From the NCBI RefSeq assembly GCF_022045235.1, contig NW_027266275.1, forward strand, positions 26,350,001 to 26,414,000: a stretch of DNA of 64,000 bases, in the 5' to 3' direction. The stretch is from Haliotis cracherodii (lineage: Eukaryota). The translations under genes and the position numbers were made by a program. Below are positions 55,901 to 64,000 of the stretch, piece by piece (within the stretch, counting starts at the first letter, position 1; each line of letters opens with the position of its first letter). The notes beneath the pieces were generated by a model. It was not told the DNA's origin. It searched no databases and worked only from the letters and a program-made list of their open reading frames with translations.

Positions 55901-58653
55901 CTCAACTGTGCATCTGACATGCTGCAAGACAGTCTTCGCTCTAAGGTGAGTTTCAACTAAAGAAGTAAACAGGCTATCGTGTCACGTGATTTGTTAGGTC
56001 CAGACAAGCTTTCACCATATTGTCTGGTCCAGACTCGATCGTGTACAGGCCGAGTGTCGTTTGGCAGCAGTACTGCCGCGTTAGCCAACACACACTTCTT
56101 TTATGCAGACGTTGTGGGTGACAGGTGCTATGGGTAGACATGCTCATGGGGGCTTGTAAGCCTAAACTAGCAGCAAGATTTGTATGGTCACTAACGGGTC
56201 ATAGAACTTAAAAAAAGGATGACCCCGTTGGTGACCATATATATCTTGCTGATAATTTTTGCGTGTGTTCAGATGAATGTTTGACTTGCCTTTGCATGTA
56301 TTTTTAACGTTTGCCCCCGGTGGAAAAAATACATTCAATTTACCTCAATTTTTCAATTTTTGTGTCACAAACCCTTAGGACATGTTTACCCTCGCGAACA
56401 CCTGGGGTTATCAGTGATTTTCAGTGAGTGATCCGTTCATATAATTTTCATCACTCTTTTGTCCTCTACGCCCAGTGGAATATGTTTCGGCAGATAACCG
56501 AGACTGTTTATTCTCTGGCGTCGATGGTTTATATGTAACGGTTGAATCTGTAGACCAATACATCATGATTATCTTATGACTAATACCGTTAATCCGGTAG
56601 CGAACCCCCCAGACCATGTTAATCTGGTAACTTATCAAAGCAATTAAAATGGTGTAATAATTTCCATATCTCTTTTCACCCCTGCCATTAGGTTGACTAC
56701 ATGTGGGAGGACCTACGACGCGAGTTCGTGAACATGGACCCATATAGCACTGGCTTTGTGACCCGGGAGGAGTTTAGGGACGTTCTGACGGAGCTGTGTG
56801 TGCATCTGAGCATGATGGAGCTGGACCAGCTCAGTGAGAGGTTCGACATCAGACAGGACGGCAGGTTAGTTACTGACACCCATGTCAAGTGTACCAGACC
56901 CCGAACATTGTGTAGTATGCTACCACCTTCACTGTATACTGTATGCTACAGCTCTCGCTATGTGTTGTATACAGCTCTTGCAATGTGTTGTATGCAGCTC
57001 TCGCTATGTGTTGTATGCAGCTCTCGCAATGTGTTGTGTGCAGCTCTCGCTATGTGTTGTATGCAGCTCTCGCAATGTGTTGTGTGCAGCTCTCGCTATG
57101 TGCTGTATGCAGCTCTCGCAATGTGTTGTATGTAGCTCTCGCTATGTGTTGTATACAGCTCTCGCAATGTGTTGTGTGCAACTCTCGCAATGTGTTGTAT
57201 GCAGCTCTCGCAATGTGTTGTATGCAGCTCTCGCTATGTTTTGTATGCAGCTTTTGCAATGTGTTGTAAGCAACTCTCGCAATGTGTTGTATGCAGCTCT
57301 CGCAATGTGTTGTATGCAGCTCTCACAATGCGTTGCATGCTACCCCCTTCAATTCAGTGAGCAGCTGAGTGTGGTTGAATATGCTTTTAGCTGTATTCCA
57401 GCAATACAACGGCGCGGGACACCAGGAATGGGGTCACACAGTGTACCCATGTGGGGAATCAAAATCGAACCCGGATTTTCGCGAGCGATCGCTTTAACCA
57501 CCAGGCTACCCTCCCCCTTTCAATTCCGGACACTTTAGAATAATAAATGCACTACTCCCTATACACCCTGTCTCCCTGTTGCTACCAATGTCTCCCTATG
57601 TCTTGCAGGGTGTCTTACGTTGAGTTCTTGAAGCCATTTGCCCTGAGGAAGCAGGTCTGGCGTCATGGAAACAACATGTTGTCGCTACTGCAGCACCCCC
57701 AGCCCGAGCTCCCGATCGCCGATGTTGTAGAACCCCCTCAACAGGGTCTACACGGTATCACAGCCAAACTCAGACAGAAGGTAGGCCTTTCAGCCGGGGA
57801 CCAAAGAAATGGTTAAAGGTGTAGACATGTACAGCTATATATTCTTCTTACTATCTTGCGTAGTTTTCTGTAAATAACTCACAATATATGAAGATGCGCA
57901 GGACCCTTCCCCTCAAACAAAGGTCTGGGCACAAGCTCATGTCACATATGCATGGTTCATTAGTACAGAACCTTGAGACATCCTAAAAAAAAGGTTGTTC
58001 TACCATTTCGGTGACCTGCTAAAGTTCAGTTCTAAAGTTCTTTACTATCAGTGTATGTGCTGATACTGTTCTTCACTGGTGTCACGTCAGATAATGTAAG
58101 TTAAATATATCTGTGTATTATCATTATTATGTTCATAAGGTCATTACAATGGACCATAACTTCTTTTCAAAGCACTGAACTATTATATGCTTGAACAAGG
58201 AGAAAAGGGGCCCAATAAATCCCTAGCAGCCTGGACATGTCTTGTAAGGATCTGGTGATTGTAACCAGGGTGATTGCATGCCATCGAACCCCGACAGGTT
58301 TCATCATTGCTCACAGAACGATTAGCTGGAGGATTGCTGACTGCGGCTAAAAACAACATTCCTTCCCATGTTGTGACGTATTGAACTATTTCTGTTCGCA
58401 GCTGGCGGGTGACTGGAAGAATCTACGCCGCGCATTCCGGAAGTTAGACGTGACCGGAAACGGATATTTATCTGTCCCAGAGTTCCGTTCGGTTCTCAAA
58501 TTGGCGAATGTGCTTCTTGACGAAGACGAGGTTTACCACGTGATGACACAGTTTGATAGAGACATGACAGGCAAAATATCCTACGACAAGTTCATTGATG
58601 AAACATTTAGGCCTGAAACACGACGAAGTGCAAGACGACCATCTCAAAGTTAA
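28625..58653 (+). CDS. EFCAB6: EF-hand calcium-binding domain-containing protein 6-like, 15 exons, ~944 aa; join(28625..28994,45139..45239,45972..46069,46432..46683,47349..47486,48594..48718,49854..50011,50867..51063,52067..52174,53876..54052,54795..55064,55702..55945,56692..56864,57609..57780,58402..58653)
   Basis: Repeated EF-hand pairs (FKDNDPEGKGNVSRE, FEELDTNSTGVVSFDNF, FVNMDPYSTGFVTREEF, FRKLDVTGNGYLSVPEF, FDRDMTGKISYDKF). The C-terminus resembles recalled EFCAB6. All phases are consistent (2835 nt). Orthology versus paralogy was not tested. Confidence 0.85.
29534..29805 (-). mobile_element. Family B, full length
   Basis: TSD agatttcattgag. Confidence 0.9.
30650..30815 (+). mobile_element. 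SINE family A, full length
   Basis: 14-bp TSD cactttacatctaa (30636-30649 / 30816-30829). Confidence 0.92.
31456..31720 (-). mobile_element. Family B
   Basis: Reverse-strand copy; TSD-like atggttatgtt. Confidence 0.85.
33818..35540. repeat. 33-bp minisatellite (tgtttgatggtggctaaagaaagtatacaccta), ~52 units
   Basis: Direct periodicity. Confidence 0.97.
37043..37460. repeat. ~35-bp minisatellite (gttacagtcagtggaggttggttgttctgatatat), ~12 units
   Basis: Direct periodicity. Confidence 0.93.
38495..38662 (+). mobile_element. SINE family A
   Basis: TSD acaa(g/t)agcagtg. Confidence 0.9.
39791..39950 (+). mobile_element. SINE family A
   Basis: Same head, body and tail. Confidence 0.9.
40495..40675 (+). 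mobile_element. Family B with internal deletion
   Basis: 5' part fused directly to the tail. Confidence 0.8.
41225..42035. repeat. 40-bp minisatellite (tagatgtcgtgatcagccagttacaccactagggccacac), ~20 units
   Basis: Direct periodicity. Confidence 0.97.
44450..44605 (+). mobile_element. SINE family A
   Basis: Same head and body. Confidence 0.85.
45139..45239 (+). CDS. EFCAB6: EFCAB6-like exon 2
   Basis: GSRASVADRAEVPPSRASTRLSRPGTQARLEIDE. Confidence 0.82.
45972..46069 (+). CDS. EFCAB6: EFCAB6-like exon 3
   Basis: LESLLKEKLKTNYYEVRKRFKDNDPEGKGNVS. Confidence 0.92.
46432..46683 (+). CDS. EFCAB6: EFCAB6-like exon 4
   Basis: REAFCRILMLVL...VSFTEFFSHF...HLKEKAKQ. Confidence 0.92.
47349..47486 (+). 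CDS. EFCAB6: EFCAB6-like exon 5
   Basis: FLDVADMFPQMNPGGSGRILKPEFKQLLNKMLFFMEDDEFDKLWN. Confidence 0.92.
48594..48718 (+). CDS. EFCAB6: EFCAB6-like exon 6
   Basis: YDSEGTGVVQGAKFLKSLGIEW...NEEG. Confidence 0.88.
49854..50011 (+). CDS. EFCAB6: EFCAB6-like exon 7
   Basis: DGAPVSERRTP...IERWLKDKFREGFFQMKESFEELDTNSTGV. Confidence 0.92.
50089..50375 (-). mobile_element. Family B, full length
   Basis: Three copies of the 22-bp internal module; TSD ca(c/t)attgaggtg. Confidence 0.9.
50867..51063 (+). CDS. EFCAB6: EFCAB6-like exon 8
   Basis: VSFDNFLDVLKQFGL...VPYREFLHRFQDRSE. Confidence 0.92.
52067..52174 (+). CDS. EFCAB6: EFCAB6-like exon 9
   Basis: YNHPGSVDGVSTVSAIEAQLMNMFQRDFLALLGTF. Confidence 0.9.
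52668..53875. repeat. 39-bp minisatellite with two unit subtypes, abutting EFCAB6-like exon 10
   Basis: Subtype switch near 52970; downstream unit is atctacgtcagtagtgaaggttatgatggtgtgttgtag. Confidence 0.97.
53876..54052 (+). CDS. EFCAB6: EFCAB6-like exon 10
   Basis: SIDKIGQDIISQEEFRAAIESRF...DEEGNVRYAEFMQLFDT; the acceptor is the last unit of a 39-bp minisatellite. Confidence 0.9.
54630..54765. other. Assembly gap (N run)
   Basis: Ns. Confidence 1.
54795..55064 (+). CDS. EFCAB6: EFCAB6-like exon 11
   Basis: GKAQSLFQG...VEAAFYDLDETNTRRLTTEMMHQLLK. Confidence 0.92.
55702..55945 (+). CDS. EFCAB6: EFCAB6-like exon 12
   Basis: FDIQPEVSRREIRDLWKTF...LDYLQFVRHF...LQDSLRSK. Confidence 0.92.
56692..56864 (+). 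CDS. EFCAB6: EFCAB6-like exon 13
   Basis: VDYMWEDLRREFVNMDPYSTGFVTREEFRDVL...FDIRQDG. Confidence 0.93.
56940..57340. repeat. 23-bp minisatellite (atgtgttgtatgcagctctcgca), ~17 units
   Basis: Direct periodicity. Confidence 0.95.
57356..57517 (-). mobile_element. SINE family A (diverged)
   Basis: Reverse-strand copy. Confidence 0.75.
57609..57780 (+). CDS. EFCAB6: EFCAB6-like exon 14
   Basis: VSYVEFLKPF...GITAKLRQK. Confidence 0.92.
58402..58653 (+). CDS. EFCAB6: EFCAB6-like exon 15 (stop)
   Basis: LAGDWKNLRRAFRKLDVTGNGYLSVPEF...ISYDKFIDETF...QS*. Confidence 0.93.
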   Translation: MAGDWKNLRRAFRKLDVTGNGYLSVPEFRSVLKLANVLLDEDEVYHVMTQFDRDMTGKISYDKFIDETFRPETRRSARRPSQS

Positions 58654-60392
58654 ACAGGAAAGGCATCCAAGTGACACTGAGTGTATGTAACACATGTGGA
58701 AGTATTGATCAGTATTAATACTACAGTATTGGATTGCTGTCGACATCTCATCAGTATTGGCTATCATACATGTTGTTTTGTACAGAGCTTCATTATTACT
58801 AATCGTGTGTCAACGGGACAGTTACAATCATATTTCAAAGGTAGATCATTATATTGTAAATACTTGTATTTATGAGTCATGATTTCAAATAGAATATATC
58901 GTTTAATTATGATTTGTCCCTATTGTACTCTTTATATTTGTTTTGTATTTAGTGTGTCTGGTTTTGCACGGAAAAGAAAAATAAGTCATTTAGCAAAATG
59001 TGGTGTCAAGTGTTCTTTTAAAGTGGCTCGGACATACCGGCAGTCTTAGCAAACTTGATTCAAGTCTTTGAAACACTACTTTGCCTTTCCGCTCAGTCAC
59101 AGTTTATGCGCCGCAATTCGCTGTGCAGACTTTTCTTCCTTTGGGCAAGCCAGAAACCTATGATTGTGGATTCGAATCGACATTCGTCCTGATTATTTTT
59201 CTAGGTTTCACAGCACCATACGTGTGCTTGTGGGTTTCACAAAATTGGTAAACGCCTGAGACCTGCATTACTAAGGGCCTTCCTTTCACATTAAGCTGAC
59301 ACCCCCCGATGTAGCTGGAAGACTGTTCAAAGCGGCGTTAGACATAATTCACTTACTCACAGTTTGTGATGTATACTAGTCACACAGTTAAGACACCTAC
59401 CTAAATATACAGAGGCAATGCCTCGGTCTCACACAAGGCACTAATTACAATGATTAGGCCTTGGCTGAAATGGGAAACGGATCGTGGAACATAGTCCCCG
59501 TTTAACTTAGGGGTGTTGAATCTATATCCACGACACCTCTCGCCAAATACATTGATACGAACTATCAACGCAAAAGAATGTATATACTTGAAAACTGAAT
59601 TTGTCCGCACAATTACAAACGTCATCAAAACGTTACAAGGCCGAAAACAGTCGCACACTTAAGGTCCAAAACACAACTATAATACTCGTATCAAATACAC
59701 CACCGTCGAATAACCATTTCTTGTTTGTTTCACATTTAAGCTCCATCGAACATGGATGTATATTTTCTTTTGCCCAGCAATTTAGATATGTAAACGTCAG
59801 TGCTATTCAGCGTTTGATACATGATAATAATCCCAGAAACGTATTTAAAATGTGTTTGATGTTACCGTTTGCCCAACGTCCCACCTATATTTTAAATAAT
59901 TCTCCAGCTGTACGATGGTGTTGTTGTAACAGTGTGATTTTATTGTGTTCTTTGTGTTTACATATGCATATTTTGTGATTTATACAGAGAACTCCTCAAA
60001 GAAACTGTGATAATTATATTGTTTATATTTTAAGTGTGTAGTTTGTGGTTTGTTAATTGTTAATCATCCTTTGCTCAACTTCATGCCTGACGTCATCATA
60101 TATATTTTGTAAATCAAGATAAATAAACAATGAAAAATTGATATATGATTTCATTATATATTTTTTTTATTAAATTCTCTATTTAGGTTTCAAAGACTAA
60201 TATCGGAAGGAAAATATATATAACATTAAACATTGGCTTTCGAGAACTAAAAATTGAGAATATACAACCTCCTCTATACCAAATCACGAAAGAAATTTGA
60301 AGACAAGTGAAGCACATCAACTTGATTGAAGCACAGTTACTTCAGGTTCAGGCCATCTACTATCTGCCGTCCAGTAGATGTGTTGTAGACAG

Positions 60393-60729: not shown

Positions 60730-61080
60730 AAAAGGTGAACGTATCCTGCCCCACGGGTGGCAACCGTCACAAACACATGCAAAGCCAAGTCCACTGTTCA
60801 CCTGGAAAAACAAGGGAGTACGTGGGACAAGTCAAAATCGCTGTGCAGAGTTGCGTCCCTTGGCCACGCCAGAAACCTATGATTGTGGGTTCGAATTCCG
60901 GTTCGCCCCGATTATGTTTCTAGGTTTGTCAGCACCATACCCGTGCTCGTGGGTTTCACCGAAGTGGTAAACGTCTGAGACCTGCATCACTTCGGGCTTT
61001 CCTCCCACATAAAGCTGACACGCCATGATATGACTGGAATACTGTTAAAAGCGGAGTTAAACCCAACTCACTCACTCACT
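60730..61080 (+). mobile_element. Interspersed repeat family C with (actc)n tail; related fragments at ~30270-30390, 46828-46910, 54078-54150, 56268-56345, 59115-59360
   Basis: Shared blocks tgccccac..gtggca..cgtcacaaacacatgcaaag and gccagaaacctatgattgtgg..tcgaat. Confidence 0.75.
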
Positions 61081-61346
61081 GCGAATGGTGGTCATACCCG
61101 ATAATGACAATCGATTCCACGCCACTTTCAGTCTGAGATGACGTTTACGGACGACATATGTTGACAGCGTCATGATGAATTCAATTTAAATTGAAATTTT
61201 ATAGAAAAATAAAAGTTCCCCGAAAATCCTTGAAAAAAGATTATGCTGCAGATTGTTGAAAAAAAAATGCCTGCCTAACAAATTACAGTGTTTTCCTTAA
61301 ATGGTTCAGTAATCTGTATAAGTAGATAGAAAGTAATACCTTCCGG

Positions 61347-61700
61347 ACAAAAGCATTCCTGTGGAGCGTGGAGCACCAACAAAAGCATTCCTGTGGAGCA
61401 TAGAATTTCCAACAAATTCCTGTGGAGCATGGAATTTCCAACAAGAGCATTCCTGTGGAGCGTGGAATTTCCAACAAAAGCATTCCTGTGGAGCGTGGAA
61501 TGTCCAACAAAAGCATTCCTGTGGAGCGTGGAATTTCCAACAAAAGCATTCCTGTGAAGCGTGGAATTTCCAACAAAAGCATTCCTGTGAAGCGTGGAAT
61601 TTCCAACAAAAGCATTCCTGCGGATCGTGGAATTTCCTGTGGAGCAGCATTCCTATGGAGCGTAGAGTAAAGAAACAAACAAAAGCATTCTTGTGGAGCA
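61347..61700. repeat. 33-bp tandem array (caacaaaagcattcctgtggagcgtggaatttc), ~10 units
   Basis: Periodicity directly visible. Confidence 0.95.
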
Positions 61701-61809
61701 TACCACAGAGGCCAGTCAATACCTTTCACACAATAGAAGTTAACAATAACATTCCAGGATCAACGTTTCAACCACTCATAGAATGTATGGTGCGATGAAT
61801 ACTCAGTAG

Positions 61810-61849
61810 CCAATGAAACGCTAAAGGAAGTCAAAGTACACCAATGAAA
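61810..61849 (+). promoter_or_regulatory. Paired CCAAT boxes (CCAATGAAA at 61810 and 61841) upstream of the NADAR ATG
   Basis: Two identical 9-mers 31 bp apart, 120-155 bp before ATG 61965. Confidence 0.4.
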
Positions 61850-61964
61850 TTCAACTTTATGGAAGTTAAGCAGTGTTTAACTGTTGAAGCTTTCATTCGA
61901 GCTTAAACAGCCATCTTGTCAACAAGACGAAATCTTCACGCCAGTATACATCTTGAATCTGATC

Positions 61965-62471
61965 ATGGGAACCCGAACAAATGACAAGTATGTATTTTTT
62001 TACACCAGAACTTCAGTGTTTAGTCAACATTGTTCTACTGAGATTGTTATTGAAGGAATAGCATTTAACTGTGCTGAGCAGTATTACATGTATTAAAAAG
62101 CTTGTATGCTCAGAGATTGGGAAACTGTGCATAAGATTTTAAAGTGTGTTTCTGCTGCCGAACAAAAACGTTTAGGTAGAAGTGAGAGATGTTTTAATCA
62201 ACGTCAATGGGATGTTGTGAGTTCCAATGTGGTGTATGCAGCATCTTCAGCTAAATTCAAACAGTCTGTTTTTCTGAAGAAACAACTGTTAGACACTTTT
62301 CCCAAGATCTTGATAGAAGCGAGTCCATATGATCGTGTGTGGGTTGTGGGTCTATCACTGCATGACCCTAATATTCTTAATCCATCTGAATGGAAAGGCA
62401 GTAATAGACTTGGTCAGATCTTAATGATGGTTAGAAATGAAATAATGAACACAGAGCCAAGTGAAAACTGA
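61965..62471 (+). pseudogene. NADAR/YbiA-family hydrolase, ~168 codons, with an in-frame TAA at 62094-62096
   Basis: Track ORFs 61884..62096 and 62106..62471 are the same frame. Motifs: FSQH, FNCAEQYYMY*KA, QKRLGR, AKFKQ, LIEASPYDRVW, WKGSNRLGQILMMVR. The stop replaces the usual Gln of YQKA (CAA>TAA). Confidence 0.9.
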
Positions 62472-62516
62472 TGGCTTTAAATGTGTTACAGTGATTTAAC
62501 TTGCTATTTTGAACAG

Positions 62517-63132
62517 AGGCAAGAAAACTACATTCTACTCGTGGAAGCATTTCATGCGGATGCCACACACTCTAAATGAGCCAATCATAACACGATCGCC
62601 TGGGTGGTTTCAAGATAGGGAAGAATGCGAGAAAGATGCAAAGAGAAAATTTAAAGATGAATACAAGGCAACAAAGAGAGTCATTATCAAGAAGATGAAA
62701 ACCTTACCACACAACGCTGATGAAGTAGATATGGCTACAAAACTGAAACAAGCAGAGGACCTTCTCACGTTGAGTTACTCTTTAGAAGTGAGTAAAACGA
62801 TCAGCCAGCTCGTGTGTGAAATGTGTATTCCTTGTTTGTTTGATGAAGAAGGTGATCCAATCTTTTTGGGAGAACATTCTTGTCGCATGTCGGAGCAGGA
62901 GCAGGTGGATAAATACTTCAACGCGGCACTTGAGGATAAGGACAATGAACTGGTAATAGGAAAATGGATGAAACTTGTGACTGATGATCCACATCTGTGC
63001 ACAATGCCTGCTTTCCATTTAGTTCCTTACCACTGTAAGGACTATCGTGACAATACATTCAAATCACCTGAATGGGTGAATGGTTTAAAGCAATGCGTTG
63101 TAAAAATGTTGAAGTTGCAAAAACGCTTGTAG
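62517..63132 (+). CDS. Unknown element-associated protein with a CxxCxxC...HxC motif; probably spliced to leader exon 61965..61987 (212 aa)
   Basis: Open 205-codon frame with no ATG at its 5' end, preceded by branch/pyrimidine/CAG acceptor at 62516. AATAAA follows at 63209-63214. Confidence 0.65.
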
Positions 63133-63208
63133 ACTGTTTCCATGTCATATTATTTATCAGTACCAAATGAAATGTGTGTGTGTGTACTTTAGCAATATTC
63201 ATACTATG

Positions 63209-63214
63209 AATAAA
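63209..63214 (+). terminator. Polyadenylation signal for the NADAR/unknown-ORF unit
   Basis: AATAAA 77 bp after the stop at 63132, followed by a T-rich tract. Confidence 0.5.
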
Positions 63215-63313: not shown

Positions 63314-64000
63314 ATGAAGCCACAACAGAGAAAGGTGCTAACAAAGAAACAGGAGAAGATGTTAGAAAGTTACTATTTTAACCCGCTTGAACCGGGAGCT
63401 TTTTATGGTCCTGAGAAACTTCATAGCATTCTGAAATTAGCTCGTCAACAAGATCTCAGACTGAGCACTGTGAAACGTTTTCTGAACAAACAGGACGCCT
63501 ACAGTTTACACAACCACCCAAACAGAGATTCAAAAGGCTGAGAGTTCGAGTGAATTTTATAAATGAAATGTTTGATGTAGATTTGACCGACATGACTCGT
63601 TACAGCAAGGAGAATAATGGCGTGAGTTATTTACTGGTGGCTATTGACATACTAAGTAGGTTTGCTTTTGCCCTGCCTTTAACAAATAAGATACCAGAGA
63701 CAGTACTGAAAGCTTTCAAAGAAATAAATCAGGAACGAAATCCAATGAAAGTGCGTGTGGCTGGTGGTTCAGAGTTTAAAGGAGTATTTAAAGATTTTTT
63801 AGAAAAACACAATATCACTCTGACTGTTGCACATAATGAAAATATCAAAAGTAATTATGTGGAACGATTCAACAGAACACTGAAATCACTTATTACGCAT
63901 TACTTGACCCATAATAACACCAAGTATTATTTAGATGCACTGCCCAAGTTGATGGGCAATTATAACAACACCTTACATTCTTCTTTGCCCAACCTTGCAC
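63314..64000 (+). pseudogene. Polinton/Maverick-type retroviral-like (rve, DDE) integrase, frameshifted, truncated by window end
   Basis: YYFNPLEPGAFYGPEKL...FLNKQDAYSLH, then a 1-nt deletion at ~63512, then PPKQRFKRLRV...FDVDLTDM...YLLVAIDILSRF...VRVAGGSEF...VERFNRTLK...YNNTLHSS. Confidence 0.92.

Follow-up and report, generated by a model that had tools for sequence, protein, structure and literature searches.

Near the right end of a 64,000-nucleotide stretch of Haliotis cracherodii DNA (the window), the ATG at position 61965 opens a frame for a NADAR (YbiA-type) protein that is followed by a second frame, ORF2, raising the question of whether one start codon serves two unrelated proteins, the coding sequence of one lying inside an intron of the other. 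The features of this leftmost gene unit and its surroundings are as follows (window coordinates):

61315-61320: 6-bp target-site duplication TGTATA, repeated right past the far end of the element at G000:C12:26431528
about 61321-61739: left terminal inverted repeat of a Polinton, with a 33-nt repeat array at 61347-61704
61810-61845, + strand: two CCAAT boxes, a putative promoter
61909-61987, + strand: exon 1, with an approximate 5' end taken from contig 27 of sequencing run X8
61965-61987, + strand: coding part of exon 1, seven codons plus 2 nt, common to both products
61988-62516, + strand: 529-nt GT-AG phase-2 intron with the NADAR coding sequence inside, from junction contigs of runs X8 and X9 and RefSeq model P0012
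61965-62471, + strand: NADAR (YbiA-type) frame of 168 codons, with a stop at codon 44 (62094-62096)
62517-63132, + strand: coding part of exon 2 (ORF2), giving 212 aa once joined to exon 1
63209-63214, + strand: AATAAA, a likely shared poly(A) signal
63314-64000, + strand: Polinton integrase (rve), the next gene of the element, frameshifted in the window copy

The unit belongs to a Polinton/Maverick that extends from 61321 to G000:C12:26431527 and carries 33-nt repeats in its inverted ends and TGTATA on both flanks; in the comparison of the two ends, 61317-61739 matched the far end in inverted orientation. The length of about 20.2 kb falls within the 13-25 kb given for such elements with terminal inverted repeats in the available text of bioRxiv 2023.08.22.554363, and the 6-bp target-site duplication falls within the 5-8 bp range of Polintons. 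Pfam searches identified a retroviral-type integrase (rve, E 9.6e-8) and a protein-primed PolB (DNA_pol_B_2, E 3.6e-15), both interrupted in the window copy like its NADAR, so that several genes of this copy are broken. Matches to Pox_A32 (packaging ATPase) and Peptidase_C5 (adenain-like protease) stayed below the cut-off at E 0.008, the protease reaching E 1.1e-5 in one sister-lineage copy; the candidates for capsid proteins are ORFs of the right size and place that gave no Pfam or PDB sequence match. The element also carries a BIR/IAP gene. Frames in the upstream 33-nt repeats were considered as an exon and rejected as part of the terminal repeat.

Several further observations were made on these elements and on the insertion site. 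A further small gene, marked by a CxGC..HPSQ..HxC motif, is present at L133:6074-6724 (+) and L031:4789-5403 (-); its L133 version can be aligned to ORF2 (hhalign 93.9%), and an acceptor-like AG stands one base ahead of the ATG there, a hint of leader splicing in other Polinton genes. A long Thr-rich mucin-like repeat frame lies within the element at L032:3171-4331 (-) and is shorter or absent in sister copies. The insertion site is about 2.7 kb past an EF-hand exon (window 58351-58653) and about 6.5 kb from a Piwi-domain exon (L033:4991-5359 (-)), and two copies of a 229-nt dispersed repeat are found to its left (window 59132-59360 and 60851-61079).

A sequence-only reading of the window had proposed a donor GT at 61988, 23 nt after the ATG at 61965 and in phase 2, an AG ending a 529-nt intron at 62516 with phase-2 entry into the ORF2 frame, a NADAR nonsense codon inside that intron, and a single AATAAA at 63209 behind both frames. 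All of these positions hold in the sequence, and AATAAA is present in 12 of 14 copies of the window's family, and 31 of 36 copies have a CCAAT no more than 200 nt ahead of the NADAR start. Splice motifs alone are weak evidence. GTATGT occurs 1.3 times per kb in the window and a pyrimidine-rich YAG 3.6 times per kb, and the GTATGT donor is itself a by-product of K-Y-V codons at the NADAR N-terminus. It is the junction in contigs, the RefSeq model and the conservation described below that lift the prediction above chance. Two points of the reading called for correction. The branch-like ATTTAAC exists in the window, but 11 of 13 mapped copies read ATGTAAC there, and ORF2, described as having no 5' ATG of its own, does contain an in-frame ATG at 62554, but this comes after the invariant residues F6, W9 and K10. 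Unspliced RNA would be a NADAR message in the family, but not in the window copy, where the NADAR frame is broken, so any dual output belongs to the family rather than to this insertion.

Splicing was looked for in six of 17 likely-RNA sequencing runs (X1, X2, X5, X7, X8 and X9, the last two being samples from a single study) and in one of six large unlabelled runs (X17), the RNA status of the runs being a guess and all data being assembled contigs, which show presence, not absence. A contig of X8 passes from 61987 to 62518 with one letter between (depth 5.1); the extra letter is explained by a variant at 62517, so that this junction is the predicted 61987|62517. The same joint was found in an X9 contig on a sister copy, skipping 529 nt between GT and AG (depth 7.9). 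The junction expected by the sequence-only reading is thus present in related copies. It is not listed in the DNA-like X17 of the same organism, although X17 covers all 30 bins, nor among the contigs of the other four of the six likely-RNA runs (X1, X2, X5 and X7). A GT-AG junction in likely-RNA runs with none listed in the DNA-like run is what is expected of a spliceosomal intron. Contigs with and without the junction differ from the window and derive from sister copies with a NADAR uninterrupted at codon 44. Cover in the likely-RNA runs is low or nil over the integrase and upstream of exon 1, where X17 continues, an observation that was not counted as evidence.

Unspliced contigs crossing both donor and acceptor are also present in X8 (depth 7.1) and X9 (depth 10.6), and spliced and retained forms vary among the six runs, contigs being unable to measure levels. 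The unspliced contigs of X1, X2 and X5 start upstream of the CCAAT boxes and may thus be read-through, pre-mRNA or DNA. Apparent retention would also arise if copies simply differed, some splicing fully and damaged ones never, with pooled reads mimicking a mixture. The family is indeed multi-copy and 1-6% diverged, and the donor is damaged in copies L005, L006 and L053; however, the retained-intron contig of X9 has five differences but an untouched donor, and for donor and NADAR both to be under selection across lineages, a single unit must make both products. We regard this explanation as improbable.

Splicing could also be real with NADAR made from a shorter RNA ending within the intron, the read-through contigs being precursors. 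The gap between the NADAR stop and the acceptor is just 45 nt and RNA ends are invisible in contigs, which leaves room for such intronic polyadenylation. Against it, the intron has no AATAAA or ATTAAA in seven of eight copies, the NADAR frame reaches or passes the acceptor in three divergent copies, and retained contigs span the acceptor in X1, X2, X5, X8 and X9. This alternative appears unlikely, if by a little the least unlikely of the four weighed here.

One run departs from the pattern. An ORF2 contig of X5 (depth 52) starts at the acceptor AG (window 62515) with no joint to exon 1 listed, at an intron depth of 10, which points to another 5' partner. Spliced-leader trans-splicing, reportedly seen in a mollusc, was considered for this role. 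It was dropped, the available text of PMC7986045 making no mention of molluscs and no other support being at hand. More generally, ORF2 might be made mostly with another 5' partner, a host or element exon joined to the same acceptor, leaving the NADAR mini-exon a minor form, and RefSeq model P0004 does have a different first exon. The sum of junction and retained depth in X9 (7.9 + 10.6) nevertheless matches that of exon 2 (18.3), although contig depth is a poor measure, and the agreement in phase is conserved. Predominant use of another first exon accordingly seems slightly less probable than a mixture of differing copies.

Protein databases supplied independent models of the spliced product. 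The intact 212-aa protein predicted from the sequence is identical, letter for letter, to P0012, an uncharacterized H. cracherodii protein in RefSeq, and seven of 11 members of the P0012 cluster are 212 aa long. RefSeq models of this kind usually rest on RNA alignments. P0026, a RefSeq model of H. rubra, places a divergent ORF2, with about 55% identity to the best matches here, behind a NADAR-type first peptide MGTRVTD, and P0027 carries a mini-exon of the sister-lineage type described below. The exact sequence of the intron-nested NADAR is absent from the protein database, where its best match is 57%. A NADAR (P0013) and an own-ATG ORF2 (P0028) each lie on a Logan contig of 1582 nt and, if this is one contig, would be two tandem genes with separate starts.

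Genome matches in G000 number at least 150 for ORF2 (150 of 150 scored, from 203 candidates) and 108 of 136 for NADAR. The window's family comprises 14 loci, 13 of them mapped for splice sites, of which 11 retain the donor GTATGT, all 13 the acceptor and eight an open NADAR frame; divergence among its copies is 1-6% and dN is close to dS, which fits a recent spread and subsequent drift. Four further lineages, with NADARs 41-58% identical, share the layout. Among 46 NADAR-bearing loci, four duplicate loci having been left out, 36 have a readable 5' end and 32 of these have GT at start+23; two lineages have a weak donor, GTTCGT. The G of the donor GT falls on the third position of codon 8, which reads AAG, AAG, AAG, AGG and CGG in the five lineages; the two Arg lineages may share one change and are not fully independent. 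Third-base G is found elsewhere in 18 of 54 Lys and three of 41 Arg codons, codon 8 is the sole G-invariant third position among 92 codon columns, and fourfold sites across the five lineages are only 20-54% identical. For 74 loci with an anchor motif, a simple custom acceptor score placed the best acceptor in phase 2 for 29 of 30 copies with NADAR, for 27 of 28 of the sister lineage and for only six of 16 from the remaining NADAR-free, mostly own-ATG lineages. The NADAR lineages L061, L064, L067, L069 and L070 have an ATG just past the acceptor. GT, AG and phase are thus kept in sister copies, as the sequence-only reading had anticipated.

This pattern bears on a further alternative, in which the K-Y-V codons create the donor by accident, the junction reflects splicing noise and translation of ORF2 reinitiates at its own ATG. 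The motif does follow conserved NADAR residues, GTATGT is common in the window and an ORF2 ATG is available at 62554. This ATG, however, would omit F6, W9 and K10, the synonymous donor G has been kept through saturation, and the NADAR-free sister lineage retains both the mini-exon and the phase. We consider an accident the least probable of the alternatives, and very improbable. It is likely, in our judgement, that one start codon and a coding intron yield two proteins, a 212-aa cysteine-motif protein from the spliced RNA and, probably, the 168-aa NADAR from the retained form.

Pfam NADAR matches both halves of the window frame (E 0.01 and 7.5e-30) and an open-frame sister copy with 149 bits against a cut-off of 35. 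Between lineages, NADAR dN is 0.27-0.58 at a dS of 1.66 to saturated, so that the protein has been under purifying selection while inside the intron. Residues were mapped by alignment to the numbering in the available text of PMC11543638, and the counterparts of E43, K50, E125, D130 and W133 in the solved oomycete NADAR are retained: E118, K45, D123 and W126 in five of five lineage representatives and E38 in four of five. The YbiA-type glutamate in the last strand and the main ADP-ribose contacts are thereby conserved, and the element NADAR shares both the Pfam domain and this catalytic glutamate of the YbiA subfamily with viral and YbiA-type NADAR hydrolases. A guanine ADP-ribosyltransferase, CARP-1, occurs in clams. 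NADARs take ADP-ribose off guanine in DNA, according to the available texts of PMC11543638 and PMC11125620, and viral NADARs have been proposed as a counter to ADP-ribose defences (available text of PMC9503650). The element NADAR probably acts by removing ADP-ribose marks that the host has placed on the nucleic acid of the element. Elsewhere in the genome, a host gene cluster at G000:C34:41.51-41.60 Mb (L120-L123) contains tandem NADAR domains, each over three exons, and three tandem partial copies of NADAR and the ORF2 start lie 3262 nt apart at G000:C13:16780235-16787410.

ORF2 has a confidently predicted fold (pLDDT 84) of a small beta/alpha N-terminal domain and a helical domain with CxxC...HxC, and its invariant residues include F6, W9, K10, C103, C106 and H120 (alignment A1). 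It has no Pfam family and no usable Atlas match; Foldseek found no structural match at E 0.001 in BFVD or PDB, the best VIA Z was 5.3, and no relatives were found among viral or metagenome contigs. The ORF2 profile is matched by 180 representatives at E 0.001, and a PC4 single-stranded-DNA-binding domain in two of 22 scanned homologues (P0064 and P0110) is the sole functional hint for the family. A regulatory role, for example as a nuclear regulator, is possible but doubtful.

The history of the intron is reflected in a sister lineage (L015-L030) that lacks NADAR and has a mini-exon of 11 nt with the ATG, followed by a plain, AT-rich intron of about 210-220 nt in two unrelated versions and by a phase-2 acceptor. 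The elements of L133-L134, in this NADAR-free sister lineage, have another gene order, with PolB upstream on the same strand, and inverted ends of about 1.2 kb. An ORF2 tree of 34 of 68 rows, from which near-duplicates and long branches were dropped and which has no firm root, placed L015-L030 as sister to the window's family (99/96) and the two together as sister to own-ATG copies (100/96), with the other NADAR lineages outside, requiring at least four changes of NADAR presence. A single clade of NADAR-bearing ORF2 lineages was rejected (p-AU 5.7e-7), and one clade of the five intron-nested NADAR lineages alone was weakly rejected (p-AU 0.016). The NADAR tree set all element NADARs and P0013 on one side against 11 outside proteins (99/94), which were chosen by likeness to one lineage, host multi-exon NADAR genes being left out. 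An early gain of NADAR with several losses, or shuffling of modules, may each fit the tree. The D-K/R-Y/F-V codons of NADAR form the donor, so a likely origin of the intron is recruitment of a splice site within a NADAR gene lying upstream; in most NADAR lineages, ORF2 would then have come to rely on the NADAR start codon.

The coding-intron unit would then work as follows. One promoter, presumably at the CCAAT boxes, would give one RNA ending after 63214. Splicing, as seen in contigs of sister copies, would give ORF2 carrying seven borrowed codons; retention, an RNA form present in the contigs, would give NADAR with ORF2 as the 3' untranslated region. The retained RNA would run to the common poly(A) signal without a further predicted junction downstream and so escape junction-dependent decay. 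The host spliceosome would act on a deliberately incomplete intron, NADAR may serve early, in the nucleus and in counter-defence, and intron retention may be a regulated switch.

The sequence-only reading had likened the unit to adenovirus, and the closer analogy is segments 7 and 8 of influenza A. The M1/M2 and NS1/NEP pairs have a common start codon and about ten residues in common, with overlap of the two frames beyond the acceptor. Unspliced and host-spliced RNAs of one unit there encode different proteins (available text of PMC3516560). Influenza is an RNA virus, whereas the Polinton unit belongs to an integrating DNA element and its unspliced gene lies almost wholly within the intron. 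The coding sequence of one product is also removed as the intron of another in polyomavirus small t/large T, papillomavirus E6/E6*-E7 and P-element intron 3; there, the T antigens have an entire domain in common, E7 starts at an ATG of its own and P-element retention truncates the same protein, whereas the Polinton unit encodes two unrelated proteins with just seven codons in common. Adintovirus/Eupolintoviridae accessory genes (Oncoid, Adintoc, IAP) come from the same element class, with a small Cys-motif gene and BIR/IAP (PMC8502044), but Oncoid as described by Starrett et al. has LXCXE beside a paired CXXC, while ORF2, inspected by eye in alignment A1, has CxxC and HxC and no LXCXE. Reported eupolintovirus introns are non-coding introner insertions, unlike the coding intron here (available text of PMC12166617).

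The main text of PMC8502044 mentions neither NADAR nor splicing, its supplementary gene tables being a place where a Polinton NADAR could be listed, and the main text of the PMC9503650 survey of phages, NCLDVs and RNA viruses does not mention Polintons, from which its supplements could differ. We found no literature precedent for an intron-nested NADAR, and no report of a NADAR or dual splicing unit in Polintons in the available main texts of PMC8502044, PMC11071296, PMC12166617 and bioRxiv 2023.08.22.554363. RefSeq already contains the spliced protein, without a name; no description appears to exist of the nested enzyme or of the conserved dual layout.

The available texts of the Polinton papers searched treat genes as simple ORFs and are silent on expression, and the present data give direct evidence that splicing in an animal Polinton is conserved and productive. 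NADAR is a counter-defence candidate unlisted for Polintons and gives reason to think that host ADP-ribosylation acts on them. Tentatively, and at somewhat less than an even chance, mollusc Polintons may possess an early unit under splicing control, with the host spliceosome balancing an anti-ADP-ribosylation enzyme against a regulator. The same reserve applies to the life history of the intron that the family may record, with a donor recruited from the upstream gene's codons, a downstream gene losing its own start and one lineage left with a plain intron. The sister lineages, with coding and plain introns, allow intron origin or nested-gene loss to be tested. The spliced product is in RefSeq, while searching the protein database did not turn up the nested enzyme, an annotation blind spot; if the reading is true, annotation pipelines would hide an accessory layer of Polinton genes inside introns.
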